Shown here piece by piece: positions 6,108-55,864 of a stretch of 64,000 nucleotides of DNA; within the stretch, counting starts at the first letter, position 1; each line of letters opens with the position of its first letter. Below the pieces are notes generated by a model. It was not told the DNA's origin and ran no database searches. It saw only the letters and a program-made list of their open reading frames with translations. Origin of the DNA: Bryobacterales bacterium (lineage in GTDB: Bacteria > Acidobacteriota > Terriglobia > Bryobacterales > UBA6623); the NCBI GenBank assembly GCA_965208945.1, contig OZ242366.1, forward strand, positions 2,195,827 to 2,259,826, given 5' to 3'. A program made the position numbers and the translations under genes.

Positions 6108-7118
6108 ATGGACGGCTGGCGTTCTCAGATCTTTATTGTCTTTTTGCTGATGACGGTCGTCCTCGCGGCGGGGACACTGGGCTTTCAGGCTGTGGAAGGC
6201 TGGTCGTTGTTTGACAGCTTCTATATGACGCTGGTCACTCTGACGACAGTCGGCTACGAAGAGATACACCCCTTGTCATTTCGCGGCCGCGTTTTTGCCT
6301 CGGTTCTGATGCTGGCCGGGGTGACTACGATCTTGGCGTCCATCACGATTTTGGGCGATATGATGCTGAAGCTCGAGTTGGGAGACGCCTTCGGGCGCCG
6401 GCGGAGGAGGATCATGCTCAAGAAGCTCTCCGATCACTACATTGTTTGCGGGGCGGGTCGGGTCGGCCGGAGCGTCGTGCGAGAGCTGAAGCGAAACGAA
6501 GCCGACGTGCTGCTCATCGAGTCGGATCCGGAGCGCGCGAAGTGGGGCGCGGATCAGGATGTGCCGACGCTGGTTGCGGATGCCACGCAGGACTCGACGT
6601 TGCGGACCGCTCAAATCGAGACGGCGAACGGACTCGTTGCCGCTGTGGACTCCGACGCGCAGAACGTGTACGTGACGCTGTCGGCCAGGGTGCTGAACCC
6701 GAACCTGTTGATCGCGTCGCGAGCAAGCAGTCGGGATGCGGCGGATCGGCTGCGGCGGGCGGGAGCGAATACGGTGTTCACGCCCTATGCGTTCATCGGA
6801 CATCGGCTGGCGCAATCGATGCTGCGGCCTCATGCGCTGAGCTTGCTCGATGTTGCGTCCGCGTTCGGGAACTCGACCGATCTGGACATCGAGGCTGAAG
6901 AGGTACGGGTTTCCGAATCGAGTCGCATGGTTTCCCTGACGCTCGATGAGTCGCGCATCAAGTCGGATCTGGGGGTGATCGTGCTGGCCGCCAGGAAGCC
7001 GGGCGGAGAGATGCAATTCAATCCCGCTGGAGATACGCGGATCGAAGCCGGCGGCGTGTTCATCGTGATGGGCGAGCGGTCGAACTTGAAGAAACTGGAA
7101 GAGATTCTGGAGAGCTGA
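6108..7118 (+). CDS. 2-TM K+ channel-like protein with RCK/TrkA-N domain (MthK-like), atypical filter TVGYEE
   Basis: Pore helix plus filter reads FYMTLVTLTTVGYEE. Rossmann motif IVCGAGRVG. C-terminal TrkA-C-like region. Confidence 0.85.
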   Translation: MDGWRSQIFIVFLLMTVVLAAGTLGFQAVEGWSLFDSFYMTLVTLTTVGYEEIHPLSFRGRVFASVLMLAGVTTILASITILGDMMLKLELGDAFGRRRRRIMLKKLSDHYIVCGAGRVGRSVVRELKRNEADVLLIESDPERAKWGADQDVPTLVADATQDSTLRTAQIETANGLVAAVDSDAQNVYVTLSARVLNPNLLIASRASSRDAADRLRRAGANTVFTPYAFIGHRLAQSMLRPHALSLLDVASAFGNSTDLDIEAEEVRVSESSRMVSLTLDESRIKSDLGVIVLAARKPGGEMQFNPAGDTRIEAGGVFIVMGERSNLKKLEEILES

Positions 7119-22260: not shown

Positions 22261-22284
22261 GGAGGGAAGCGGGGTGTCCTTTAG

Positions 22285-22485
22285 CCTGTATTTCTCACCA
22301 CGCGGCGAGGCGAAGTGCGTGAGAGGGCCGTCAGGACGAGGCGCAAGCCGGGCGGAGGAAAAAGGCGCGAGCCGCTTGGCGCGCGCAGGCGTACTTGAAC
22401 CGTACGTTGAGCACGGCAAGCAAGCGCAACGAAGTCCTGGTGCTCGTATCGTGTGCTTCGACCGTTGGGTGGTGAGAAATGCAGG
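22285..22485 (+). mobile_element. MITE copy D (long subfamily, 201 bp)
   Basis: Flanked by a direct TTAG...TTAG (22281-22284 and 22486-22489). Contains the extra segment aagccgggcggaggaaaaaggcgcg. Confidence 0.9.
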
Positions 22486-23265
22486 TTAGAGCCTTTCGAG
22501 TTGTTCGCCCGCCACGGCAAAGGCGGCGAAAAGAGTTGCATTGTAGCTGGCGTGAACCAGGGTCGACGGCAGGATCGAACCGGTTCGAGCGCGCAATGTG
22601 CCGAACACGACCCCTACGCCCAGCAGCAGCAGCAGGTTCTGCCATCGCCAGCCGTACTGCGTGCCGTGTACCAGTGAGAACAGGGCGCTCGTGGCGAAGA
22701 CCGCGAAGCCCGCCCCTCGGGAGCGCTCGAATACGGGGAACAGGAAGCCCCGAAAGAAAGTCTCTTCCAATACCGGGGCGAAAAGGATGCCGAAGACGGC
22801 GAGTAGGGCCATCACCAGCGGGTCTTCGAGAAGGATTTCGAGAGGCAGTTTCTCGTCCACCTGCGGCAGCAGCATTGAGACGAGAACCACGCTAATGGCG
22901 AGAAAAGGACCCGTGGCCAGGTATTGAACGGGTGAGCCCTCATAGCGGACCCAGCCGATCGAAGGCCCGAATCGCAAGCGGTACTTGACGGCAACGATCA
23001 GATAGATGAATGCGAAGACCGCGGCCCAGAGCAACATCGAAATCGCCACATTCAGAGGTCCCTGCACGCGCGGCTCTTCCAGGTTGACCTCCCAATCGAA
23101 CACGAATCCCATCCCATAGAGGCACCCGACGGCGATCACCGAGAGCATGAACAGGGCAATCACCCCAAAGACAAGCAGGTAGAGAAGATCGAGATATCCC
23201 CAGGTTTCCGGTTGCTCGGGGTCGTCTGGAGGCAAGAGCGGGGGTGGCTCGCTGGGGTGTTCCAT
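22486..23265 (-). CDS. CPBP family intramembrane glutamic endopeptidase (CAAX protease-like)
   Basis: Motifs EETFFRGF, SLVHG, HASYN. The stop TAA lies inside the TTAG flank of MITE D. An alternative start at 23292 uses the ATG in the MITE E1 terminus. Confidence 0.85.
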   Translation of the reverse strand: MEHPSEPPPLLPPDDPEQPETWGYLDLLYLLVFGVIALFMLSVIAVGCLYGMGFVFDWEVNLEEPRVQGPLNVAISMLLWAAVFAFIYLIVAVKYRLRFGPSIGWVRYEGSPVQYLATGPFLAISVVLVSMLLPQVDEKLPLEILLEDPLVMALLAVFGILFAPVLEETFFRGFLFPVFERSRGAGFAVFATSALFSLVHGTQYGWRWQNLLLLLGVGVVFGTLRARTGSILPSTLVHASYNATLFAAFAVAGEQLERL

Positions 23266-23285
23266 CGGCGAGCGCCGGTCGCTAG

Positions 23286-23666
23286 CCTGCATGTCTCACC
23301 ACGTGGCGAGGCGAAGTGGGTGAGAGGACCGTCAGGACTAGCCTGCATGTCTCACCACGCGGCGAGGTGAAGTGCGTGAGAGGGCCGTCAGGACGAGGCG
23401 CGAGCCGCTTGGCGCGCGCAGGCGTACTTGACAGTACGTTGAGCACGGCAAGCAAGCGCAACGAAGTCCTGGCGGTCGTATCGCGTGCTTCGGCCGTCGG
23501 GTGGTGAGAAATGCAGGCTAGGCGCAAGCCGGGCGGAGGAAAAAGGCGCGAGCCGCTTGGCGCGCGCAGGCGTACTTGAACAGTACGTTGAGTACGGCAA
23601 GCAAACGCAACGAAGTCCTGGCGGTCGTATGGCGTGCTTCGACCGTCGGGTGGTGAGAAATGCAGG
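23286..23666 (+). mobile_element. MITE copy E1 (long subfamily) carrying nested copy E2
   Basis: E1 is interrupted after gtcaggac by E2. E1 sequence resumes at 23522 with gcgcaagccggg. Confidence 0.88.
23342..23517 (+). mobile_element. MITE copy E2 (short subfamily) nested in E1
   Basis: Complete TIRs, with CTAG on both sides (23338-23341 and 23518-23521). Confidence 0.88.
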
Positions 23667-23783
23667 CTGGGGTTGTCCGGTCGCAAAGTATCCATCGTAA
23701 CGCGGAATGGAGGCGTCAAAGCCCGTAGTGGCCTCGTTTTCGACGTCCGTGAGGTTTCTGAGGTCAGGCCGGATAATGGGGCT

Positions 23784-26162: not shown

Positions 26163-26402
26163 GGTCGCCTGATTATAACGGGCGGAGTGTAGCGGCTTGT
26201 CTCCGTCGAGGTCGGGAAGCAGAGAGAAAAAGGCGTCCGGTTACGGCAATCGCCGTCTCCGTTCCCGGCAAGGCGAACCTGCTGCGTCACGCTGCGGCAG
26301 GCGCCCGTGACGGCCGAAGTGGCCGCTGTTTCCTCTCGAAGCCTGGTCTGGGTTTTCGAAAACCGCTCCGGTCGGCGGGAGACTCCAACCCGCGGTCAAC
26401 CC

Positions 26403-27068: not shown

Positions 27069-27243
27069 AATCGTTTACCGACACCGTGCCCCTTCGGAGG
27101 CCCGGACAGTTGCAGCGAACGCTTGGATCACGTTCGCTGCAGATTCAAAATCGCCCGTTTCTCCGTTCGAAGCAGGTACCAGTCTCCGGCATTTTGATTT
27201 AGGAATGTTCTGCTGCCGAGAAGACGCGTGCGTCTCAGGCTAG

Positions 27244-27419
27244 CCTGCATTTCTCACCACGCGGCGAGGCGAAGTGCGTGAGAGGGCCGTCAGGACGAGG
27301 CGCGCGCCGCTTGGCGCGCGCAGGCGTACTTGACGGTACGTTGAGCACGGCAAGCAAGCGCAACGAAGTCCTGGCGGTCATATCGTGTGCTTCGACCGTC
27401 GAGTGGTGAGAAATGCAGG
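27244..27419 (+). mobile_element. MITE copy G1 (short subfamily)
   Basis: TIRs present, with CTAG on both flanks (27240-27243 and 27420-27423). Confidence 0.9.
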
Positions 27420-27515
27420 CTAGAGCTTTCAGTGCACCCGGAATCGGTCCAAGAAAATAGCTAATGTAACACATTCCGAAAACCGCAAGTGCATTGAACC
27501 ACGGTGCGTTTCTAG

Positions 27516-27692
27516 CCTGCATTTCTCACCACGTGGCGAGGCGAAGTGGGTGAGAGGGCCGTCAGGACGAGGCGCGCGCCGCTTGGCGCGCGCAGGCGTA
27601 CTTGAACAGTACGTTGAGCACGGCAAGCAAGCGCAACGAAGTCATGACGGTCATATGGCGTGCTTCGACCGTCGGGTGGTGAGAAATGCGGG
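27516..27692 (+). mobile_element. MITE copy G2 (short subfamily)
   Basis: TIRs present. Flanks are CTAG and CTAA. Separated from G1 by an 88-bp AT-richer spacer. Confidence 0.9.
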
Positions 27693-27840
27693 CTAAGCGG
27701 CTGCGGGCTGGCGGCGCGGGCATCGCACTGCGCCGGGGAACATTCCGCGAGACGAGACCTCGCTCGACGTCAACACCCCCGCTGGTGCAGGCCTGCATCG
27801 TGCCCGTCCCAGCGCGGCATCGACAACGACTTCTGAGAGA

Positions 27841-29197: not shown

Positions 29198-29225
29198 TGC
29201 AGTGGACCTGAGAGAACGTGAGCTG

Positions 29226-29412
29226 ACCTGTATTCTCACCACGAGGCGAGGCGAAGTGGGTGAGAGGGCCGACAGGACGAGGCGCGGGCCGGGCGGAGGA
29301 AAAAGGCGCGTGCAACATGGCTTTTAAAGGTTTTTACGAATCACGAGTCACGAAACACGAATCACGGCCTTTTTATCGCGTGCTTCGACCGTCGGGTAGT
29401 GAGAAATGCAGG
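29226..29412 (+). mobile_element. MITE copy H (heptad-bearing variant)
   Basis: Normal left arm and right TIR. The centre is replaced by ggcttttaaaggttttt plus an (A/T)CACGAR heptad array. Flanks are CTGA and TCAG. Confidence 0.85.
29334..29368. repeat. Heptad tandem repeat (W)CACGAR x5 inside MITE H
   Basis: Units read ttacgaa tcacgag tcacgaa acacgaa tcacggc. Confidence 0.85.
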
Positions 29413-29552
29413 TCAGAGCGGCTGCGATCATAACGTGCCGGACAGACTGGGTCAAGCGCCGCGGACACTTCCAAATGGAGTCGACTCGCCTTTGCGGTCC
29501 GATTTTGTTGATCTTTCCCCGAGAATGAGAGATTCTATGTAGTTTTCCTTTG

Positions 29553-30645: not shown

Positions 30646-31056
30646 TCACGTCCAACTTCGTATTTGTAACCCCTCGAATCCCTGAAAGTCGCCCCTGTTC
30701 GACGTAACTAGGGTCAGCCCGTTGACGAAAGCGATCGCGGCGATCTGCCCGTCGACAAACGGCGGGGTCCTGCCTGCCGCGCTCAGCCGCGCCCGCTCGA
30801 TCGCATGCCGGTCGGCGGCTCGCTGGTCATACTCCAACACGGGAAAGCTTGCCAGCACCACATCCTCGATATAGTGCTCGATGGCTTCTCGTTGTCGTGA
30901 CGGCGCCAGTCGGGCACAGCCGAACCGCAGCTCGTGCCAGACTGGCGCCGGAATCGCAATGTCGTCCTCGTGTTGACGCAGCAGCCGCATGACGACGGGG
31001 GACGGCTTCGGCCTGAGAGGCTCCGAGATGATGTTGGTATCGAGCAGGTATTTCAC
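30646..31056 (-). CDS. vapC: Type II toxin VapC (PIN domain ribonuclease)
   Basis: 136 aa starting MKYLLDTNIISE. Conserved acidic residues. Lies 3 nt downstream of the antitoxin gene. Confidence 0.9.
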   Translation of the reverse strand: MKYLLDTNIISEPLRPKPSPVVMRLLRQHEDDIAIPAPVWHELRFGCARLAPSRQREAIEHYIEDVVLASFPVLEYDQRAADRHAIERARLSAAGRTPPFVDGQIAAIAFVNGLTLVTSNRGDFQGFEGLQIRSWT

Positions 31057-31377: not shown

Positions 31378-31548
31378 CCCAAGGACCCTTGTGGCAGTCG
31401 CACCCGGAGCCGTCCGGTTCCACCGTGCTTGTGGGGCAGAACAGCGGGCTGTTTTGGAGTCCTTGGCCTCTGTACAGGCGTTGAAGCGTTGCGCTGAACC
31501 AACTTCCTGCCGAAGACCAGGCCGCCGGAACTTCGACTGCCGGTCTAG

Positions 31549-31749
31549 CCTGCATTTCTAACCACGTGGCGAGGCGAAGTGGGTGAGAGGGCCGTCAGGA
31601 CTAGGCGCAAGCCGGGCGGAGGAAAAAGGCGCGAGCCGCTTGGCGCGCGCAGGCGTACTTGAACCGTACGTTGAGCACGGCAAGCAAGCGCAACGAAGTC
31701 CTGGCGGTCGTATCGCGTGCTTCGACCGTTGGGTGGTGAGAAATACAGG
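31549..31749 (+). mobile_element. MITE copy I (long subfamily) with an unoccupied internal CTAG
   Basis: Flanks are CTAG and TCAG. Internal sequence gtcaggactaggcgcaag is the empty form of the site occupied in E1 and K. Confidence 0.9.
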
Positions 31750-31760
31750 TCAGGCGGTCT

Positions 31761-33017
31761 TTAGACCTCGATCCGTTCGATTCTTCGAATCAGCGCGAAT
31801 AGCGCCGCGAGCCCCAAGGTAGGCATCAGTCCGGCGGCCAGGAATACCGGCAAGTAGGAAAAGCGGTCTACCACGTACCCGGTGGCGAGCATGAGGGTCA
31901 TGTTCATGATTCCTTCGCCGAGGCCGGTCAGTCCCGCCATGCGGGCCAGCACTCGAGCAGCGAACAGGTCGCCGAGAGTTGCGATATGCGTCGGGACGCT
32001 GATGGCGATGCCGAAGGTCGCGAGGCAGATCAAGGCCATGGCCGTGACGGCGCTGGGCGCGATGGGAACACCCATGCTGCAAGCGCAGAGGGCGGCGCTT
32101 GTCAAGAAGGCCGCCTTGCGGGCACGGTCGGTCGGCCAGCCTCTGGCGATCAAGTGGCCGGAGAACCAGCCGCCGGCCAGGTTGCCGAGGCCTGCGAAGA
32201 GAAAGGGAATTCCGGCGGTCCAGCCGATCTCCTCCATGCTGAAGCCCCGCTCACGGCGCAAGTATTCGGGAAGCCAATACCAGTAGAAGTGGACGACGGG
32301 GCCGCCCAGCGCGCGAATCAGGATGGCGCCCCAGACCTGCCGGATTCGCAGCAGGGGCAGAAACGAGGTCCGCTGTTGCGCCTCGGCTGGGGCTGGCTGG
32401 CTGGTACGGTCGCGGTAGAAGGCGAGCCAGGGGATGATCCACAACAGGCCCAGGGCGCTCGGGATGATGAATGTCATCCGCCAGCCGAAGTGCGATCCGA
32501 GCGGGACGATCAACAGGGGAGCGAGAAAAGCCCCGGCCACCGTACCGCTGTTGAATATGCCGCCCGCGAGCGCTCGCTCTTTGATCGGGAACCACTGTGA
32601 GATGACTTTGATGCCTCCCGAGTAATTTCCGCACTCACCCGCTCCCAGGAAGAAGCGAAAGATCCTCAGGTGCCACAGGTTTCGCGCAATGGCGTGGAGG
32701 CCGTTGGCCACCGACCAGACGAACATGATGAGCGGAAGGCCGAATCGGGCCCCCTTGCGGTCGATCATCCAGCCTGCCGGGTATTGAAACAGTGTCAGCC
32801 CAAGCAGGAAGGCGAAGAGGATCTGGGAGTAGTCCGCGTTCGTCAGGCCCAGCTCGTCGCGGATCACGGGAGCCATTACCGAAAGAACCTGCCGGTCGAT
32901 CAGGTTGATCATGATCGAGAGGAAAAGCAGGAAGAGGATTCCCCAGCGCTTGGGCGAGGGCTGGTCGTCGACGGTTGAGAATCCGCCCGGCTCGTTCGTC
33001 GGGGACGATGCGGTCAT
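31761..33017 (-). CDS. MFS transporter (hexuronate/sugar-acid-type)
   Basis: 418 aa, about 12 predicted TM segments, DRKGARF-type loop motif. Confidence 0.88.
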   Translation of the reverse strand: MTASSPTNEPGGFSTVDDQPSPKRWGILFLLFLSIMINLIDRQVLSVMAPVIRDELGLTNADYSQILFAFLLGLTLFQYPAGWMIDRKGARFGLPLIMFVWSVANGLHAIARNLWHLRIFRFFLGAGECGNYSGGIKVISQWFPIKERALAGGIFNSGTVAGAFLAPLLIVPLGSHFGWRMTFIIPSALGLLWIIPWLAFYRDRTSQPAPAEAQQRTSFLPLLRIRQVWGAILIRALGGPVVHFYWYWLPEYLRRERGFSMEEIGWTAGIPFLFAGLGNLAGGWFSGHLIARGWPTDRARKAAFLTSAALCACSMGVPIAPSAVTAMALICLATFGIAISVPTHIATLGDLFAARVLARMAGLTGLGEGIMNMTLMLATGYVVDRFSYLPVFLAAGLMPTLGLAALFALIRRIERIEV

Positions 33018-33077
33018 GAGGAGATAGCTGACAGCTTAGCCGAAACCGGCGGCGCGCCTGCTTCGGGTTCGCCTTCC

Positions 33078-33170
33078 CGGATGTGAAACATCCTCCTGAT
33101 CAAGCGGCGTTGACGCCGATCCGGGTGTAGCCCGCTTGAACGATCCGACCACGAGCAGAGGAAAAACGGG
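33078..33170. repeat. X-module copy X1 (second short repeat family)
   Basis: Sequence gaaacatcctcctgatcaagcggcgttgac...cccgcttgaacgatcc..cacgagc..aaaaac. Similar to 44705-44803 and 34291-34416. Confidence 0.7.
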
Positions 33171-33237
33171 CCTGCATGTCTCGCCATGTGGCAAAGAGAA
33201 GTCCGTTCGCATCACGAATCAGGGCTTTCAAGTTTTT

Positions 33238-33269
33238 CACTAGCCACTGGCCACTAATCACTATCCACT
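33238..33269. repeat. CACTNNN x5 tandem heptads
   Basis: Units read cact agc cact ggc cact aat cact atc cact. Confidence 0.85.
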
Positions 33270-33282
33270 GCTTTTTTGCTTT

Positions 33283-33310
33283 TCACGAAACACGAGACCC
33301 GAAACACGGC
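33283..33310. repeat. Heptad tandem repeat (W)CACGAR x4
   Basis: Units read tcacgaa acacgag acccgaa acacggc. Confidence 0.8.
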
Positions 33311-33625
33311 CTTTTCTGTGGCTCGTTTGGTGCCCGTTGGTACTGAAGCCCTTCAGTCTTTTTTTCGGCCGGGGGACGGTTTAGGTTGAAAGTGATAACG
33401 CCGTTGTTGGGAACGAAAACCCCATCCGCGCCCGTCGGGGCCACAAGTCGGGTGGGGACGGAAGAGCCGCCCGGTCGCTACTTACCTGCGCGTTGTGGCG
33501 CGGCATGGGGCGGTTATGGCGCGGAATGGGCGGCCGCCGTCCCCCGCGCTGGCAACACGGCCTTTCCTGTTCACCAGACGTCAGATATTTCTTCTGGAGC
33601 GAACCAAGCCCCCCAACCATGGTTT

Positions 33626-33667
33626 TCACGAAACACGAAACACGAGACACGAGGCACGAATCACAGC
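33626..33667. repeat. Heptad tandem repeat (W)CACGAR x6
   Basis: Units read tcacgaa acacgaa acacgag acacgag gcacgaa tcacagc. Confidence 0.85.
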
Positions 33668-33680
33668 TTCCCTACCCACG

Positions 33681-33720
33681 ATTTCCCACCATTTCCCACG
33701 ATTTCCCGGCATTTCCCGGG
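33681..33720. repeat. 10-bp phased repeat ATTTCCCNNN x4
   Basis: Units read atttcccacc atttcccacg atttcccggc atttcccggg, with an exact 10-bp period. Confidence 0.9.
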
Positions 33721-33918
33721 CCCCCCACCCCCTCTCCGCCGATCAAGTGTCCACGAGCCGTCCGCCTTTCTTGGTCAGCCGCCCGGGACTGCCGCCCCCG
33801 CCCGGTCGCTGCTTTCCTGGGCGTTGTGGCGCGGCATGGGGCGGCTATGGCGCGGCATGGGGTGCCCCGAGCCACTGTTCACGCACCATCCTCACCAGCA
33901 ACATAACCATTCGGGTTT

Positions 33919-33953
33919 TCACGAAACACGAGACACGACACACGAATCACGGC
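33919..33953. repeat. Heptad tandem repeat (W)CACGAR x5
   Basis: Units read tcacgaa acacgag acacgac acacgaa tcacggc. Confidence 0.85.
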
Positions 33954-34290
33954 TTTTTTTCACATGCTGCGACCGTCGGGTGGTGAGAAATGCAGGCTAA
34001 CGCCCTGCTCGACGATCTGGTGGCTCAACAGCCGGCGGAAAAACGGACTAAGCGCGTCAGTCGGCAAGCCCGCAGGCTTCAAAGGGGCATGTACGAAGCG
34101 CGGGAAAACGAGTGGAAAGGACTTTTTCCGAATCCCGATTCGGTTCAAGATTCGGAATTCCCCACAATTCGTCACAATTCGTCGGAAAGATTCGGATAAG
34201 CACCTGCCGCCCATCAAGCGCCCCCGCGCACTGCGGCAACCGGGACATCGGCTTCATGGATGCATCGCGTCCCCGCCTGACCTTCCCTGG

Positions 34291-34416
34291 CCCGCAGGTC
34301 TCGCCAAGTGGCGAGGTGAATCAAGCGGCGTTGACAACGGTCTGGATATTTCCCGCTTGTATGATCCTCACACGAGCGGCCAAAAACCGAAAACTGAAAC
34401 TGATGAGAAAGGCAGG
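34291..34416. mobile_element. X-family small element X3 (126 bp) with degenerate MITE-like termini
   Basis: Left end is cccgcaggtctcgccaagtggcgagg, the interior is an X module, and the right end is tgatgagaaaggcagg. Flanks are CTGG and TCAG. Confidence 0.65.
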
Positions 34417-34441
34417 TCAGCTACGATAGACGTTCCGAGCC

Positions 34442-41337: not shown

Positions 41338-41533
41338 CACGCTTGGCGCGCGCAGGTGTACTTGATCGTACATCGAGCACGGCAAGCAAGCGCAACGTAG
41401 TCATGGCGGTCGTATCGCCTCCTTCGGCCCTCGGGTTACGAGACACGCAACACGGCCTTTAAGGTTTTTTACGAAACACGAAACACGGCCGTTTTATCGC
41501 GTGTTCCGGCCGTCATGTGGTGAGAAATGCAGG
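41338..41533 (+). mobile_element. MITE copy L (left arm missing; heptad-bearing right part)
   Basis: Begins within the gcttggcgcgcgcagg centre and ends in gtggtgagaaatgcagg plus CTAG. Contains two heptad arrays at 41436-41489. Confidence 0.8.
41436..41489. repeat. Two (W)CACGMR heptad arrays separated by ctttaaggtttt
   Basis: Units read ttacgag acacgca acacggc ... ttacgaa acacgaa acacggc. Confidence 0.8.
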
Positions 41534-41559
41534 CTAGCCCCCCCGACTCCCATCTCATC

Positions 41560-43648: not shown

Positions 43649-44704
43649 ATGCACCGAATAGGCTTATCCGCGGTTGTGATACTGCTGGTCGCGTTAGCAG
43701 CCGGCCTAACTGCTTCCGAGCGCTATGTTGCTGTGGACAACGTCTGCGCCTGGCCGAACCTGACGGTCTTGCCGAATGGGGACTTGACGGCCGCGATCTT
43801 CAACCACCCAAGTCACGGTCTTGCCGAGGGCGACGTGGAGGTATGGGCGAGTTCGGATGGAGGCAAGCTCTGGGAGCTTCGCGGCGCCGCTACCACGCAC
43901 GACACGGGAACGAACCGCATGAACGTCGCGGCCGGCCTGGCTCACAACGGGGATCTGGTCGTGCTCGCATCGGGCTGGGGTGGGGCTGGTTTCCGCAGGA
44001 AGATCCTGCCGGTGATGGTGAATCGTTCTTCTGACGGCGGCCGGACCTGGCAGCGCTCGTTCGACGTCGAGCTCCCCGGCGGGCTTTCTTACCTCATTCC
44101 CTTCGGTGACATCGTCTTGATGGAGAGCGGCATGTTGGCGGCGCCCTTCTATCAGGAGGACCGCGACTTGTCGTCCGGCAAGCGCCCGCAGGTAAGCAAG
44201 GGCAGCGCCTACCTCCTTTTCAGCAAGGACGACGGGCGGACCTGGGGAGACGGCGTTGTTCTCGCACGCGGCGATTACAACGAGACGTCCGTCCTGAGGA
44301 TTCGCCCCGATCGCTGGTTGGCGGCGGTGCGGACCTATCGAGACGGGCACCTCGAGCTTTTTGAATCGAGCAATGAAGGGAAGACCTGGAAGAATGCCGG
44401 GCCCCTCACGCTGCCCAGCCATCATCCGGCCCACCTGCTTCAACTCGATGACGGCCGCATCCTGCTGACCTACGGCATCCGCGAGAAAGGCCACCAGGGA
44501 GTGGGGATGCGCATCAGCGAGGACGAAGGGAAGACCTGGAAAGCTCCGACGCGAGTCGTCAACCTTGAAGGCACCACCGACGGCGGCTATCCTTCCACGG
44601 TCCAGCTTCCGGACGGCAGCCTTCTCACGGCCTACTACAGCAACGGCATTCCCCAACACCGCCGCTACCACATGGGAGTGGTCCGCTGGACGTTGTCTGA
44701 CTGA
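43649..44704 (+). CDS. BNR/Asp-box repeat protein (sialidase-like glycoside hydrolase fold)
   Basis: Five Asp-box-like motifs: SSDGGKLW, SSDGGRTW, SKDDGRTW, SNEGKTW, SEDEGKTW. Confidence 0.8.
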   Translation: MHRIGLSAVVILLVALAAGLTASERYVAVDNVCAWPNLTVLPNGDLTAAIFNHPSHGLAEGDVEVWASSDGGKLWELRGAATTHDTGTNRMNVAAGLAHNGDLVVLASGWGGAGFRRKILPVMVNRSSDGGRTWQRSFDVELPGGLSYLIPFGDIVLMESGMLAAPFYQEDRDLSSGKRPQVSKGSAYLLFSKDDGRTWGDGVVLARGDYNETSVLRIRPDRWLAAVRTYRDGHLELFESSNEGKTWKNAGPLTLPSHHPAHLLQLDDGRILLTYGIREKGHQGVGMRISEDEGKTWKAPTRVVNLEGTTDGGYPSTVQLPDGSLLTAYYSNGIPQHRRYHMGVVRWTLSD

Positions 44705-44803
44705 CCTGAAACATCCTCCTGATCAAGGGGCAGCGGACACCCATCCGGATGTTTCCGGATTGAATGATCCACAGACGAGCGGAGGAAAAACTGGCATAGC
44801 AGG
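44705..44803. mobile_element. X-family small element X2 (99 bp)
   Basis: Begins cctgaaacatcctcctgatcaag immediately after the TGA stop of the BNR gene. Ends ggcatagcagg. Separated from MITE M by cgag. Confidence 0.65.
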
Positions 44804-44807
44804 CGAG

Positions 44808-44984
44808 CCTGCATGTCTCACCACGCGGCTAGGTGAAGTGCGTGAGAGGGTCGTTAGGACGAGGCGAGCGCCGCTTGGCGCGCACAGGCGTACTTGAACA
44901 GTACGTCGAGCACGGCGAGCAAGCACAACAAAGTGATGGCGGTCGTATCGCGTGCTTCGGCCGTCGGAAGCTGAGAAATGCAGG
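44808..44984 (+). mobile_element. MITE copy M (short subfamily)
   Basis: The right flank CTAA (44985-44988) contains the stop codon (TAG on the minus strand) of the aldo/keto reductase gene. Confidence 0.88.
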
Positions 44985-51192: not shown

Positions 51193-52340
51193 CTAAACCT
51201 TCGTTCGGCGTTCTGCTCGTAACGGGCGGGATGACCCACCAGGAGAACTACGGAGAGGGATTCCTCGCCGACCCGCGCGCAAGAGTCGTCGGCCTTACCG
51301 ATGAACCCGATGTCGACGAACGCCGCGACCGCCTGAACCGCGGATTGGCCGATCAGTTCGGCATCCCCTTCCTGCCGGATATCCGCGAGGCGCTCGCGCG
51401 GTCCGATGTGCACCTCGTCTCCGTCTGCTCGGAGTTCGAGCGGCGCACCCGCGTCTCTCAAATCTGTGCGGAAGCCGGCAAGCATCTCTACGTCGACAAG
51501 CCCATGGTGACGAAGATGGCGGAGGCCGACAAACTCGTGGCGACAGCCGGGCGGCGTGGTTTGCGCGGGCAGATGTTCACTCAGGTCGGCGCGCCGTACG
51601 CGAGGCGGCTGAAAGGAATCGTCGATTCCGGTGCTTTGGGCGAGATCAAGTCGATCCAGTGTGACCTCATGTTCGCGAAGGGTTTCACCGGCGGCGCTCC
51701 GCTTGGCGTGCCGCGGCGCGAGCACGATCCGCCCAGGCGGTTCACGTTCCCGGACGCCAAGCGTGAGATCTGGACGACCGCGGTCTATTCGCTCACCTTG
51801 ATCCGCTGGCTCCTCGGCGGACCCCGCTTTCGTAGCGTCTACGCCACGAGCGCCAACTACTTTTTCGAGGAGCACTACAAACGCGATGTCGAGGACTTCG
51901 GCACGCTTGCTCTCACGCTCGACAACGGCGTCACGGCGTCGCTGATCGCCGGCCGGATCGGTTGGCACAGTCACCGCAGTTCCGGCCCGAACTTCACGCG
52001 CATCATCGGTAGCAAGCGCAGCTTCCTTCTTGACGCGCACAGCCCGCGCTTCGAAATCTCGTCCGACCGAAAGTGGGCGCCGCCGGCGAAGGACCCCATC
52101 GATCCCATGGGCTTCTGGTCGAGCACCATGGAGCGTGGGAACGCTCAACCCAAGCCCTTTTGGCATGAGCCGCCGACCGCGCCCGGGCAATCGGATCAGG
52201 CTCTCTTCCTCGATTGCCTCGAACAGGACAAAGAGCCGGAAGTCACGCTGGACGATGCCGCGCAGGCATCCGAGGCCATGCTGGCCGCCTACCGGTCCGC
52301 TGCGACAGGGCAGGTGGTGGCGTTGCCTCTGCCGCGCTAG
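51186..52340 (+). CDS. Gfo/Idh/MocA family oxidoreductase
   Basis: 384 aa. Rossmann beta1 plus Gly-rich loop FGVLLVTGG begins at codon 7. The only in-frame start after the upstream TGA (51179-51181) is the ATG inside the MITE N terminus. The stop TAG lies in the CTAG flank of MITE K. Confidence 0.8.
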   Translation: MQAKPSFGVLLVTGGMTHQENYGEGFLADPRARVVGLTDEPDVDERRDRLNRGLADQFGIPFLPDIREALARSDVHLVSVCSEFERRTRVSQICAEAGKHLYVDKPMVTKMAEADKLVATAGRRGLRGQMFTQVGAPYARRLKGIVDSGALGEIKSIQCDLMFAKGFTGGAPLGVPRREHDPPRRFTFPDAKREIWTTAVYSLTLIRWLLGGPRFRSVYATSANYFFEEHYKRDVEDFGTLALTLDNGVTASLIAGRIGWHSHRSSGPNFTRIIGSKRSFLLDAHSPRFEISSDRKWAPPAKDPIDPMGFWSSTMERGNAQPKPFWHEPPTAPGQSDQALFLDCLEQDKEPEVTLDDAAQASEAMLAAYRSAATGQVVALPLPR

Positions 52341-52396
52341 CCTGCATTTTTCACGACGTGGCGAGGCGAAGTGGGTGAGAGGGCCGTCAGGACTAG

Positions 52397-54120
52397 CCCG
52401 GAAATCTCACCAGGGGGTAGGAAAAGGGCTGCCTGGTGTGGCATAAAACATTTATGTCCAAAACGTTAGCGCCACAAGCCGAAAGCAGCCCTCTGTCAAC
52501 AGAGTGTATCCAATCCAGCTTCACCTTTGCCAAGCATTTTCGACGCCAGGTGAGCGCTCGCTTTGACGGCGGGGTGATCAGTTCCGACGGCGGCGCGCTG
52601 CTGTTACGGGAGGTGGACCAGCGCATCAACCTGCTGCCGCGCTTGGCGGGCTGCTTCGAGGATGGCCGCGATTCGCGGCGCATCGAACACCTGGTGGGGG
52701 AGTTGGTCTCGCAGCGGGTCTACGGGCTGGCGCTGGGATACGAAGACCTCAACGATCACGACGAGTTGCGGCGCGATCCGGTGCTGGCGCTGCTGGCGGG
52801 CAAGAGCGACGTGTCCGGGCAGCGCCGCCGCCGCGAGCGTGACCGCGGCCAGCCGCTGGCGGGCAAGAGCACGTTGCAGCGACTGGAACGAACGACCGAT
52901 GGCGTGGATCGTTACCAGAAGGTCCGCTGCGTCAGCGAAGCGATCGACCGCCTGTTGGTGGACGTGTTCGTGGAAGCGCACTCGCAGGAGCCGGCCGAGG
53001 TCCTACTCGATATCGACGCCACCGACACGCCTTTGCACGGGCAGCAGGAGGGACGTTTCTTTCACGGCTACTACAGACACTACTGCTACTTGCCGCTGTA
53101 CATCTTCAGCGGCGAGCACGTGTTGTGCGCGCGGCAGCGGGTATCGAATCAAGACGCGGCGGCGGGCAGCGTAGCGGAGTTGGAGAGGATCGTGGCGCAG
53201 CTCCGGGCCGCGTGGCCGGAGGTGAAGATCATCCTGCGTGGGGACTCGGGGTTTTGTCGGGACGAGTTGCTGAGTTGGTGCGAAGAGAACCGGGTGGACT
53301 ATGTGGTGGGGCTGGCGCGCAACGAGCGGCTGCAGTCGTTGATCGAGGAGGCGCTCGAAGAGGCGGCCAGCAGGCAGCAGCAAACGGGCCGGCCGGCGCG
53401 GGCCTACAGCGAGTTCGAGTATCGGACGCTTGAGAGTTGGAGCCGGGAGCGGCGGGTGGTGGCGAAAGCCGAACAGTTGGTGGGCAAGCAGAACCCGCGC
53501 TACGTGGTGACGTCGCTGGACGGGGAGCGCTGGCCGCCGCGGCGGTTGTATGAACAACTCTACTGCGGGCGCGGGGAGGCGGAGAATCGCATCAAGGAGC
53601 AGTTGAGTCTGTTCGCGGATCGCATGAGTACGGAGACGCTACGGGCCAATCAGTTGCGGCTGCATCTGTCGTCGCTGGCGTATGTGTTGCTGGTGGGACT
53701 GCGGCGGCTGGGGCTGAAGGGCACGCAGTGGGCGCGGGCGCAGACCGAGACGATCCGGCGGGGGCTGTTGAAGATCGGCGCGCTGGTGAAGGTGAGCGTG
53801 CGGCGGGTGCATCTGTCGCTGGCCAGCGGCTACCCCGATGAGGAGGCGTTCGCGGCGGTGTATCGGGCGCTGCGTCCGCCGGGACCAGCAACTGTTTGAC
53901 AACAGTGAGCGAACCGAAAAACGGGGCCGTCGGCAGCCTCAGGGGCGAAGTGTTTCTCAAATCGGCCACAACCCGAAAAACGAACATTCGCGAGCCGCTA
54001 AGGGCAGCGCAAAACGCCCCGTAGAGGCCTTCACTCACCCTCGCCGCGAAGAATACCGTGTTTCAGACCCTATTTCGGCCTCCCTCAACCCATCGCGAAG
54101 CCGCTGGTGAGAAATGCAGG
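52397..54120 (+). mobile_element. IS1380-family insertion sequence (1724 bp), probable autonomous partner of the MITE
   Basis: Bounded by CTAG direct repeats (52393-52396 and 54121-54124). IRL is cccggaaatctcaccagg and IRR is gctggtgagaaatgcagg. IRR matches the MITE TIR at 16 of 17 positions. Confidence 0.85.
52436..53899 (+). CDS. IS1380 family DDE transposase
   Basis: 487 aa. N-terminal FDGGVISSDGGALLLREVD and the blocks LDIDATDTPLHGQQEGRFFHGYY and RGDSGFCR are typical of this family, identified from memory. Confidence 0.85.
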   Translation: MWHKTFMSKTLAPQAESSPLSTECIQSSFTFAKHFRRQVSARFDGGVISSDGGALLLREVDQRINLLPRLAGCFEDGRDSRRIEHLVGELVSQRVYGLALGYEDLNDHDELRRDPVLALLAGKSDVSGQRRRRERDRGQPLAGKSTLQRLERTTDGVDRYQKVRCVSEAIDRLLVDVFVEAHSQEPAEVLLDIDATDTPLHGQQEGRFFHGYYRHYCYLPLYIFSGEHVLCARQRVSNQDAAAGSVAELERIVAQLRAAWPEVKIILRGDSGFCRDELLSWCEENRVDYVVGLARNERLQSLIEEALEEAASRQQQTGRPARAYSEFEYRTLESWSRERRVVAKAEQLVGKQNPRYVVTSLDGERWPPRRLYEQLYCGRGEAENRIKEQLSLFADRMSTETLRANQLRLHLSSLAYVLLVGLRRLGLKGTQWARAQTETIRRGLLKIGALVKVSVRRVHLSLASGYPDEEAFAAVYRALRPPGPATV

Positions 54121-54281
54121 CTAGGCGCAAGCCGGGCGAAGGAAAAAGGCGCGAGCCGCTTGGCGCGCGCAGGCGTACTTATGGGATGGTTCGCTCCCAC
54201 TTCCGCTGCGTCGTCGAGTTCGGCCATGCTGGTAGCAACGGCCGTCCCCGGCCGCAGTTCACGAACCGAGAGGAAACCATC

Positions 54282-55355
54282 ATGGCAACGACCCAGCGAT
54301 CATCCCGCAAGAGCGTATGGAAGGAGGTCGTCACGATCGGCCTCGATCTAGCAAAACACAACGTCGACTTGGTCGGCTTGGACGCAACCGGCCGGGTGCT
54401 CACCCGTCGCCGCTACTCGAAGGGCAAGCTGCTGGAGGTGACCGCCCAGATGCAGCCCTGCCGTATCGGCATGGAAGCCTGCTGCGGCGCCCATCACCTG
54501 GGCCGCCAACTGCTGGCCCAGGGGCACGACGTGAAGCTGATGCCGCCCAAATATGTGAAGCCCTTTGTGAAGCGCGACAAGAACGACTCGACGGACGCCG
54601 AGGCCTGCGCGGAAGCCTGTCTGCGGCCGAGCATGCGCTTCGTGGCGGTCAAGAGCGAGCAACAACTGTCGATGCAGTCGCTGCACCGCTATCGCTCGCG
54701 GCTGGTGGGCAACTCGACGCAGTTGATCAACCAGGCGCGCGCCTTTCTGCTGGAACGCGGCATCACCCTTCCACAGGGCAAGCGTTGGTTTGTGGTCCGT
54801 CTGCCGGAGATCCTCGAGGACGCCGATAACGGCCTGTCCGACGAAATGCGGGCGCTGCTGGCGGGCATGTTTGCCGAATGGCAAGTGCTGGCAGAGAAGA
54901 TTCAGCAAGTCAACACCTATCTGCTGAGGAAAGCGCAGGCGAGCGAGGCCTGCCGGCGGCTCAGAGAGATCCCCGGCATCGGCGTGCAGACAGCGACGGC
55001 CTTGGTGGCGACGATCGGCAACGCCGAGGCCTTCGAGAAGGGGCGCGACGTCGCTGCTTGGTTGGGTCTGGTGCCGAGAGAGTACTCCAGCGGAGGCAAG
55101 CAGCGCTTGGGAGGCATCAGCAAGCGCGGCAACCGCTACGTCCGGACGCTGCTGGTGCACTGTGCCCGCTCGAGCCTCGACGTGCTCGCGAAGCGCAGCG
55201 ACCAACTCGGCCAGTGGCTGCGGCGGATGCTCCTGAACAAAGATCGGCGGGTCGTGATCGTGGCGCTGGCGGCACGGCTGGCGCGCATCGCATGGGCCTT
55301 GCTGAGCAGCGGCCAGCGCTTCTCTCAACAGCGGCAACCAGCCCCGGCGGGTTAA
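54282..55355 (+). CDS. IS110 family DEDD transposase/recombinase
   Basis: 357 aa. Blocks IGLDLAK, GMEAC, KNDSTDAEA, and C-terminal GISKRGNRYVR. Confidence 0.9.
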   Translation: MATTQRSSRKSVWKEVVTIGLDLAKHNVDLVGLDATGRVLTRRRYSKGKLLEVTAQMQPCRIGMEACCGAHHLGRQLLAQGHDVKLMPPKYVKPFVKRDKNDSTDAEACAEACLRPSMRFVAVKSEQQLSMQSLHRYRSRLVGNSTQLINQARAFLLERGITLPQGKRWFVVRLPEILEDADNGLSDEMRALLAGMFAEWQVLAEKIQQVNTYLLRKAQASEACRRLREIPGIGVQTATALVATIGNAEAFEKGRDVAAWLGLVPREYSSGGKQRLGGISKRGNRYVRTLLVHCARSSLDVLAKRSDQLGQWLRRMLLNKDRRVVIVALAARLARIAWALLSSGQRFSQQRQPAPAG

Positions 55356-55618
55356 CCGCCCTGCGGTCCGCCGTAGCACTACCAGGAGCTCACAGTTTGT
55401 CTGCTTACTCCCGATTGATGGACAAAACGGTCGTACCGGCGTCACCGAATCCTGTTACTGTTCATGGCCCTCACAGGTCGGCGTACTTATGAGGAGCGGG
55501 ACGTGCGGACCCCATCATGGCCCGGAACCAGCGCGGTTCCACCTAGAGGTCGGATATATTGGCGCAGACCAACGTTCAGCAAGAAGGAATAGGTGGACAT
55601 CCCGGGAGCGAACCATAT
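55356..55618 (+). ncRNA. Candidate guide (bridge/seek-type) RNA region in the IS110-family right end
   Basis: Contains tactgttca (55456-55464), the reverse complement of the right target flank tgaacagta. Also contains ggcgtactt (55480-55488), identical to the left target flank. A hairpin ggaacc-agcgc-ggttcc is present. No fold model could be run. Confidence 0.4.
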
Positions 55619-55864
55619 ATTGAACAGTACGTTGAGCACGGCAAGCAAGCGCAACGAAGTCCTGGCGGTCGTATCGCGTGCTTAGACCGCCGGGTGGCGA
55701 GAAATGTAGGCTAGTCGCTCCCGGAACGGTTCCCTGCCATCCCGCGCGCCAAGAGCGCCGGGCGATCGCTTGACGTAGGTGAGCCCTGAGCCGCTATCGA
55801 AGATCAGAGCGGTGTGATAACCTGACAGCAGCTCGACCCGCATACTCATTTGGGAGGAACGAAC

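Follow-up and report, generated by a model that had tools for sequence, protein, structure and literature searches.

Bacterial MITEs (miniature transposable elements with inverted repeats) derived from insertion sequences (IS) include the Correia elements of Neisseria, RUP of Streptococcus pneumoniae and Nezha of cyanobacteria. The bacterial interspersed mosaic elements (BIMEs) and repetitive extragenic palindromes (REPs) of enterobacteria form intergenic repeat mosaics that vary between strains, and some of them bind host proteins; REPs are moved by RAYT (TnpA-REP). The short tandemly repeated repetitive (STRR) heptanucleotide repeats of cyanobacteria were reportedly described by Mazel and co-workers in 1990. 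Members of the IS1380 family are approximately 1.5-2 kb long and have one open reading frame (ORF), inverted ends and target duplications of 4-5 bp. Here we report on an intergenic island at positions 33018-34441 of a 64,000-nt window of a Bryobacterales bacterium (assembly GCA_965208945.1, contig OZ242366.1), which forms the spacer between the starts of two divergent genes, i.e. a minus-strand gene of a major facilitator superfamily (MFS) transporter and a plus-strand sugar operon. The island is a nest of non-autonomous IS1380-type elements, a known kind, including an unusually long, array-rich derivative of 826 bp. With a probability of roughly 0.8 we regard it as a lineage-specific pile-up of transposase-less mobile elements in a divergent spacer and not as a conserved regulatory region. 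This reading is carried by the composition of the island, by the family membership of its parts, by its absence from related genomes, by the target duplications of short MITEs in the window and by the lack of a coding or RNA-structure signal.

With IS-derived MITEs the elements share ends in common with an autonomous IS of the same genome, the lack of a transposase, a short target duplication, intergenic location, high copy number, presence or absence depending on the strain and, in the short form, folding into a long hairpin. They differ in that the parent belongs to the IS1380 family and in that the island member comprises 826 bp with four kinds of short-period array in a conserved internal order; no description of an IS1380-derived MITE family was found in the literature searched. 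Like BIME/REP mosaics, the island consists of a small set of short, intergenic, strain-variable repeat modules that occur in varying combinations. REPs, however, lack terminal inverted repeats and target duplications, and no RAYT gene was seen here, although none was looked for. As in cyanobacterial STRR, tandem heptamers are dispersed in intergenic DNA at many loci, but phylum and sequence are different, and the heptads of the island are demonstrably parts of a transposable element family.

The main component of the island is the transposase-less 826-bp element (33171..33996, plus strand), which was delimited by alignments and by a model of the MITE family found in the window, and which carries heptad arrays and an ATTTCCC array between MITE-family ends. 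Positions 33167-33206 correspond to model positions 8-47 and positions 33957-34003 to model positions 149-195, and the repeat search detected inverted ends of 17 nt, 88% complementary, at 33170-33186 and 33981-33997. The region from 33280/33291 to 33957/33961 could be aligned end to end with two loci of assembly GCA_965243455.1, L205 (85%, 673 nt) and L206 (82%, 701 nt), which lie in unrelated gene contexts and whose central part is nearly identical to that of the island. Both loci already hold two 69-nt modules, all heptad arrays and the decad array, so the arrays and what had been noted as a duplicated core are family traits and not local events.

Repeats were called by Tandem Repeats Finder (TRF) and by a repeat-family search, and chance was tested against 100 shuffles. 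From left to right, all in plus orientation, the 826-bp element contains a CACTNNN heptad array (x4.6, 33238..33269) and CACGANN heptad array 1 (x3.6, 33284..33308; covered by 25-27 homologous copies within a small sample of related DNA), followed by a weak, terminator-like hairpin, ACTGAA-GCCC-TTCAGT, with a T7 run (33339..33365). Then come the first copy of the 69-nt module (33467..33535), which ends in 10-11-nt ATGGSGCGG repeats, and the 'H unit' (…CACGGCCTTTCC…GTCAGATATTTCTTCTGGAGCGAACCA…CATGGTTTT, 33545..33620), which precedes CACGANN heptad array 2 (x5.4, 33627..33664). The ATTTCCCNNN (ATTTCCC) decad array has an exact period of 10 bp (x4.3, 33675..33717) and is adjoined by a C-run, both together spanning 33675..33720. 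The second copy of the 69-nt module (33798..33866) is 90% identical to the first and lies 331 bp apart from it, and CACGANN heptad array 3 (x4.6, 33920..33951) ends the series approximately 30 nt from the right inverted repeat. The heptad dimer matched 26 times (6.2 expected), the ATTTCCC dimer three times (0.32 expected) and a 17-mer from the 69-nt module seven times (1.4 expected); none of the 100 shuffles reached these numbers in any of the three cases. Short-period arrays of the window cluster in the island, with one more at 29336. The earlier note on this DNA, which was made from the sequence alone, proved reliable on these points: every repeat that it had listed was reproduced in place by TRF and the repeat search, the positions 33171 and 33996 that it had taken for MITE-like ends both match the family model, and its two X-type modules (33078-33170 and 34291-34416) belong to one repeat family. 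It had also held that the arrays are not random decay, and element copies at unrelated loci do carry these arrays again, down to identical 'variable' spacer bases.

A scan of metagenomes with three ATTTCCCN3 units yielded at least 120 loci, most of which are unrelated low-GC satellites; the GC-rich relatives among the loci listed were L092, L108, L113 and L176 only. In all four, X is followed in the same order by heptads, the hairpin with its T7 run, the H unit and, together with its C-run, the ATTTCCC array. Locus L176 has an island of approximately 880 bp of the same build beside different genes. The H unit, which occurs three times in L176, is 84-85% identical to L113 9239-9134, L176 5032-5128 and L176 5604-5701, and the order of CACT heptads, CACGA heptads and hairpin could also be observed in L092 at 6885-7024. 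The layout of heptads followed by a right end recurs in the window itself at 29329-29412 (88%) and 41471-41542. The 19-nt right end gave no exact match among viral contigs.

Immediately beyond the right inverted repeat lies a fragment that resembles an internal piece of a gene like that of Gp27 of phage Mu (33999..34070, plus strand), as recognized by its similarity to L092: DNA identity to L092 7404-7465 is 81%, and 14 of 24 amino acids are identical to an intact ORF of 206 aa, which matches PF11985 at E 3e-26. The ORF of the island over this fragment had no Pfam match. As a side observation, approximately 10 CACGANN arrays, which are all found on the same strand, are spread over the 8.8 kb of L092 (MKWU01003497.1, 1-8846), and one of them ends approximately 30 nt before the ribosome-binding site of the intact Mu Gp27-like gene. 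A pair of a Gp49/HigB-like toxin and a helix-turn-helix antitoxin is also present at this locus. To the right of the Gp27-like fragment, a decayed second 10-bp array of gattcgg and cacaattcgt repeats follows at 34129..34200 (plus strand; TRF x2.1), within which CACAATTCGT is repeated x2.1 at 34163-34183. The near-identical strain L003 reads CCCACTATTTCCCACAATGCGTC and …TATTTCCCAC… at this array and differs by an indel of 31 nt. The adjoining module ATCAAGYGCCCCCGCGCAC…CATGGATGCATCG… (34207..34290, plus strand) has 80% identity over 108 nt to L176 5479-5586, where the counterpart comes directly 3' of the decad array.

When species-representative genomes were searched with the protein encoded downstream, metagenome-assembled genomes of Bryobacterales (Acidobacteriota) came out as closest; a planctomycete origin, which the PSCyt, PSD1 and DUF1501 genes had suggested, was thereby rejected. 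Four relatives were compared with the window, L005 (OZ241991.1), L006 and L007 at approximately 96% DNA identity and L008 (OZ244625.1) at approximately 91%. The island is absent from all four; such absence from close relatives was the comparative half of what, according to the earlier note, would refute its reading. In L005, L006 and L007 the alignment runs to window position 33156-33167 and resumes at 34320-34323, leaving a single X in a spacer of 212 bp; in L008 the spacer is 85 bp and only the last few bases of X are kept. Compared with these genomes the window has 1221 extra bases, which are bracketed by two exact copies of the 16-bp repeat ATCAAGCGGCGTTGAC (33099..33114 and 34320-34335, plus strand; the only exact matches of the search). 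Positions 34048-34441 recur at 94-99% identity in four short-read metagenome contigs whose downstream protein is identical; these contigs stop inside the island, as short-read assemblies do at repeats. As judged from these independent contigs, which cover only the right junction, the island is real in a tight strain group and missing from slightly more distant genomes.

Both borders of the extra DNA are formed by X-type elements. X1 (33078..33169, plus strand; nhmmer E 1e-24 and alignments) consists of an X-type left end and core; the single X of the relatives has its orthologue in the left part of X1, while the right part of X1 is of the 'GAGGAAAAAC' type, which elsewhere adjoins a MITE left end. 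Such an X-then-MITE junction is also present at 44703-44823, at 20471-20359 (minus strand) and in L005 at 1924-2035. X2 (34291..34416, plus strand) is a 126-bp element with a MITE-like left end, an X core and the right end GATGAGAAAGGCAGG. In its right part X2 is the orthologue of the relatives' single X, 34320-34441 being 88% identical to L006 and L007 and 84% to L005. Further X modules were located at 44703-44793 and 20471-20401, and three of the four X copies of the window have a MITE left end on their 3' side. The orthologous X (L005 9853-9939, L006 3642-3725, L007 8946-9032) differs by 20-30% where the flanks differ by approximately 4%, and the X site thus seems to undergo frequent conversion, recombination or deletion.

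The ends of the 826-bp element belong to a MITE family that is abundant in the window. The 16-mer GGTGAGAAATGCAGGC of the right end matched 35 times in the 64 kb (0.8 expected), mostly as inverted pairs approximately 180 bp apart, and alignment of the copies gave a near-palindromic consensus of approximately 190 bp. As single-stranded DNA this consensus folds into one long hairpin of -72.7 kcal/mol (z = -10.2). A census with an nhmmer profile revealed 10 full-length copies and at least six partial or variant ones, approximately 16 in total. Variant copies at 29222-29417 and 41340-41539 bear a CACGANN array approximately 30 nt inside the right end, as at 33920-33996. The island element has the terminal inverted repeats and the transposase-free, non-coding interior of a MITE, and the family has the dispersed copies and the insertion polymorphism. 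Target duplications were found for short family members by comparison with empty sites and not for the units of the island. The island member also exceeds the usual MITE size (less than approximately 300-500 bp), measuring 826 bp against approximately 190 bp of the common form, and 'non-autonomous IS derivative' is therefore the safer label for the long form.

A candidate partner of this family, an intact IS1380-family IS of 1726 bp, is located at 52396..54121 (plus strand). Its only ORF (52436-53899, 487 aa) was assigned to the IS1380-family transposases by PF13701 (E 7e-147) and by NF033539, with a score of 383.8 bits against a cutoff of 180. Length, single ORF, inverted ends (left end CCCGGAAATCTCACCAGG; reverse complement of the right end CCTGCATTTCTCACCAGC) and a target duplication, with CTAG on both sides of 52396-54121, agree with the IS1380 family. 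The reverse complement of the right end, CCTGCATTTCTCACCA, reproduces nucleotides 1-16 of the MITE end exactly; the IS is thus the autonomous element with matching ends that a MITE family presupposes, and it is the likely source of the transposase. Many MITE copies of the window are missing from L005-L007, and comparison of filled with empty sites revealed 4-bp duplications, TTAG at 22284-22486, CTAG and CTAA for two copies at 27243-27693, and a CTAG-type duplication at 23280-23670. Clean duplications that had been suspected at 29223-29416 (CTGA…TCAG) and 31548-31750 (CTAG…TCAG) were not counted, as their flanks were not exact against the empty sites. The 4-bp duplications fit the range of the IS1380 family, whose members duplicate 4-5 bp. 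In IS1247, for example, which is 1672 bp long, the direct repeat measures 5 bp (PMC3281130). The identity of the ends, the target duplications and the polymorphism of insertions together suggest that the MITE family is moved by an IS1380 transposase.

In agreement with the earlier note, which had dismissed the ORFs of the island as junk, none of the tests indicated that the island is coding. The three long ORFs had no Pfam match, substitutions between copies were distributed over codon positions 1/2/3 as 12/23/19 and 14/20/28 without a third-position bias, and indels of 1, 2, 7, 10 and 28 nt between copies break the reading frame. With the longest junk ORF as query, at least 272 called 'proteins' were nevertheless matched (E <= 0.001), at least 10 of which lie on the contig of 5,967,994 bp on which the 100% match is located; further ones were found on other contigs, among them contigs of 5.86, 6.30 and 5.63 Mb. 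Among 121 retrieved junk ORFs, the peptide signature of the 69-nt module was recognized in 116, that of the heptads in 106 and that of the decads in 76, and in most of the ORFs the signatures occur together. That gene callers annotate ORFs of 170-350 aa on such copies would be the argument for a genuine P/R/G/W-rich protein, and that short-read contigs break inside the island would be the argument for an assembly artefact. Both ideas are hardly credible, the first in view of the missing domain match and codon bias and of the frame-breaking indels, the second because four independent assemblies contain the right junction as well and full-length homologous copies are present in other long contigs.

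The arrays differ in unit number between copies of the element. Heptad array 2 has five units in the island, four in L205 and one in L206, the decad array has four, four and approximately nine (in L206 as a run of CCTTTCCCGG), and the number of 10-11-nt ATGGSGCGG repeats in the 69-nt module also varies among the three. As some of the arrays are exact double units of 14 or 20 nt, alternating 'variable' bases were spread by duplication and not by many independent changes. The arrays thus behave as expected of slippage-prone tracts, and they are probably neutral.

From these data the following origin of the island is proposed. The resident sequence would have been one small X-type element in the divergent spacer. 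In the lineage of the window, recombination at the X core, crossing over in the 16-bp identity, would then have brought in a block of DNA, and this block would have consisted of the right part of a second X, the 826-bp element, approximately 290 bp of donor flank including the scrap of the Mu Gp27-like gene and the decayed second 10-bp array, and a MITE-type left end. Alternatively, adjacent DNA may have been mobilized through end misrecognition, as for IS1380-family elements; entry probably took one of these two routes. The IS1380 transposase would move the MITE family in trans, duplicating 4-bp YTAR targets, and the arrays and the duplicated 69-nt module would have been inherited with the 826-bp element family and not invented locally. 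The IS1380-family elements ISPme1 and ISEcp1 mobilize adjacent DNA of variable length via misrecognized end-like sequences (PMC9330008, PMC3281130), and the 'transposable modules' (TMos) of this family carry DNA just beyond the right end in this way (PMC9330008). The island resembles these transposition units in that the same transposase family picks up variable adjacent DNA, which would account for the shared right ends, the variable interiors and the Gp27-gene scrap past the right end; by analogy, the scrap may be explained by end misrecognition. The described modules, however, contain the IS, whereas the island contains none, and end misrecognition is only presumed here.

Several findings weigh against this explanation. 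The copy numbers of the long element are lower bounds derived from called ORFs. The 826-bp element is flanked by CGGG on the left and CTAA on the right, and X2 by CTGG and TCAG, so that neither has an intact target duplication; as the flanks do not match, the island units are rearranged or nested members and not pristine insertions, and they do not show that the 826-bp element arrived in one clean transposition. We infer the action of the transposase on MITE ends from sequence identity alone. The two X cores (33099-33168 and 34320-34389) are only 74% identical, so that the extra DNA is no simple insertion with a long duplication, and the structure fits a loss via X-to-X recombination equally well as a gain, parsimony alone favouring the latter. 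On the question of whether the arrays are neutral, heptad positions 6-7 vary far more than the CACGA core, and substitutions between copies amount to approximately 5-6% in array columns versus 10-12% elsewhere. The decad unit, moreover, resembles the end of the element: CATTTCCCAC agrees with the core of the MITE end, CATTTCTCAC, in 9 of 10 positions and CCGGCATTTC with its tip, CCTGCATTTC, likewise in 9 of 10, a level also reached by 3% of composition-matched shuffled units (p ~0.03). Core constancy and end resemblance may mean that the arrays are constrained rather than neutral.

The relation between the two X elements could accordingly be read in the reverse direction, with the island as the ancestral state and the relatives having lost it by recombination between the directly repeated X cores, which would have left a hybrid single X. 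The single X of L005, L006 and L007 indeed combines the left part of X1 with the right part of X2, as is predicted for X1-by-X2 recombination at the 16-bp identity. The divergence of X by 20-30% between genomes with flanks differing by 4% likewise points to a spot that recombines or converts often, and L008 has clearly lost most of X. We nevertheless consider a loss unlikely. Three genomes at approximately 96% identity and an outgroup at 91% are all without the island; it is carried by the window and by four near-identical strains from metagenomes, and parsimony favours one gain over several losses. Many other family copies of the window are, in addition, absent from the relatives with clean empty sites, indicating recent gain activity.

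The resemblance between unit and end also raises the question of whether proteins bind the arrays, notably the ATTTCCC array with its 10-bp phase, as functional sites of the element, be they extra binding sites or surrogate ends for the IS1380 transposase or sites for nucleoid proteins. Such a role is compatible with the proposed identity of the island and concerns only the part played by the arrays. Besides the two 9/10 matches, the constant CACGA core and the lower substitution rate of array columns, it would agree with the similarity of the reverse-complement unit CCGGGAAATC to the left-end tip of the IS, CCCGGAAATC, and with the ability of IS1380 transposases to accept end-like sequences (PMC9330008). 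The decad array might thus derive from or mimic a transposase-binding sequence, which is a lead and not proof. The similarity between unit and end is, however, post hoc and weak, the intact IS is without such arrays in its own non-coding ends, and unit number varies freely (5/4/1 and 4/4/~9). Shared variable bases were inherited and spread by duplication of 14-/20-nt double units, leaving few independent events, and a binding function of the arrays is therefore regarded as doubtful.

Units with a fixed core that are phased at 10 bp resemble the boxes of winged-helix regulators and iterons. The four ATTTCCC units of the island, with seven fixed and three variable bases at an exact 10-bp phase, have the direct repeats at one-helical-turn spacing and the combination of fixed core and variable spacer in common with such arrays, and the earlier note had taken them for an iteron- or operator-like array. 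A locus-specific device serving the MFS gene, the sugar operon, replication or partition is, however, highly improbable, and the comparison of genomes already contradicts it. All four relatives, in which the flanking genes are intact, lack the island, and the same array occurs as a dispersed module in many copies at unrelated loci, with an unstable unit number. No replication or partition gene lies nearby, and no linked initiator, regulator or origin was seen among the neighbours. In lacking an associated initiator or regulator gene, in not being conserved at the locus, and in copy and unit number, the array thus differs from described iterons and phased operators.

The arrays might have consequences beyond this locus if the 0.7-0.83-kb element were a mobile cassette that spreads a fixed set of phased binding arrays, or an unstructured heptad-repeat RNA with its end at the hairpin-T7, through intergenic regions of these Bryobacterales, which we think rather improbable. 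In this case each insertion would plant the same binding platform or RNA beside a new gene, with transposase docking, surrogate ends or titration of a host DNA- or RNA-binding protein as possible roles.

Analyses at the RNA level gave no signal. Against Rfam, neither the whole window at gathering score nor the island at E <= 1 produced a match, and for stretches that bear arrays the predicted folding is not superior to that of shuffles (z +0.55 and +0.57). A scan of the island for sigma-70 promoter-like sites found none, and the scan for intrinsic terminators gave a single terminator-like call in the island, which is within chance. The hairpin with its T7 run at 33339-33365 is identical in 27 of 27 positions in L108 and L113 and is conserved in L092, L176, L205 and L206; its centroid structure has -6.6 kcal/mol. 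This hairpin could terminate a small RNA of the element, consisting of an unstructured CACU/CACGA heptad tract that ends in hairpin and U7, and this RNA might sponge up an RNA-binding protein or form a 5' leader. The order of CACT heptads, CACGA heptads and hairpin-T7/8 is conserved in the island, L092, L176, L205 and L206, the tract is predicted to be single-stranded, and the heptad-bearing copies of the window are all sense-oriented upstream of plus-strand genes. Such an RNA gene is nevertheless very unlikely, as the hairpin is weak and fails the criteria of the terminator scan, promoter-like site and Rfam match are both wanting, and the argument from orientation is unspecific, nearly all family copies being plus-oriented whatever the strand of the neighbour. 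A structured hairpin in the X module, as RNA or DNA, was likewise rejected: RNAalifold did not pick the TCAAGCGG/CCGCTTGA stem, and in the 8-bp stem 83.3% of cells pair compared with 83.1% in shuffles, with one compensatory pair and no covariation beyond shuffles.

The island should consequently not be read as the regulatory region of the MFS gene or of the sugar operon. The window shows that the intergenic DNA of an uncultured soil lineage of Acidobacteriota is saturated with a recently active, IS1380-derived MITE family, which breaks short-read assemblies, seeds protein databases with hundreds of junk 'proteins' and time and again alters the DNA close to promoters. Among non-autonomous elements the long array-bearing derivative is unusually elaborate, and its biological relevance, if any, would lie in whatever binds its arrays.

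Outside the mobile DNA, the native spacer beside the start codon of the MFS gene (33018..33077) aligns with the orthologous spacer of L005, L006, L007 and partly of L008. The MFS gene itself (31761-33017, minus strand) matches MFS_1 of Pfam at E 6e-49, and the products of the plus-strand operon are a glucosamine-6-P-isomerase-like (Glucosamine_iso-like) protein, a xylose-isomerase-like TIM-barrel protein, and PSCyt/PSD1 and DUF1501 proteins. Approximately 2 kb from the island, a gene with a PIN domain (toxin-like; 30646-31056, minus strand) is situated between two MITE copies.

Fifteen of the 16 MITE-family copies of the window are in plus orientation irrespective of the strand of the neighbouring genes, and GC skew is positive across most of the window, which suggests that the orientation bias is tied to the direction of replication and not to transcription. 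An ATG inside the MITE right end GAAATGCAGG (20367, 33990, 41527 and 54114) is the point at which spurious or over-extended ORFs start. The MITE at 23280-23670 contains tandem duplications in its interior (periods of 56 and 149, 92-96% identical), and the entire stretch is absent from L005. Another stretch of 165 bp (26191-26356) is absent from L005 and L007; it is flanked by GTGTA and TCGAAAACC, has no match to MITE or X and may be another small mobile element.

At 52335-55719, one MITE copy has been split twice, by the IS1380-family element (52396-54121, CTAG duplication) and by an IS110-family element (approximately 54182-55619), the ORF of which matches NF033542, 'RNA-guided transposase'. 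An 11-mer shared by the H unit and the IS110 ends, GGAGCGAACCA, was dismissed as not significant (five matches, 1.85 expected; equalled by 6% of shuffles). The IS110 element sits in the central hairpin loop of the MITE (…GGCGTACTT|ATGGGATGG … GAACCATAT|ATTGAACAGTACG), and its 3' non-coding sequence at 55478-55490 (GGCGTACTTATGA) repeats the left junction at 54171-54183, a repeat that might resemble a guide of the bridge-RNA type for its MITE target.

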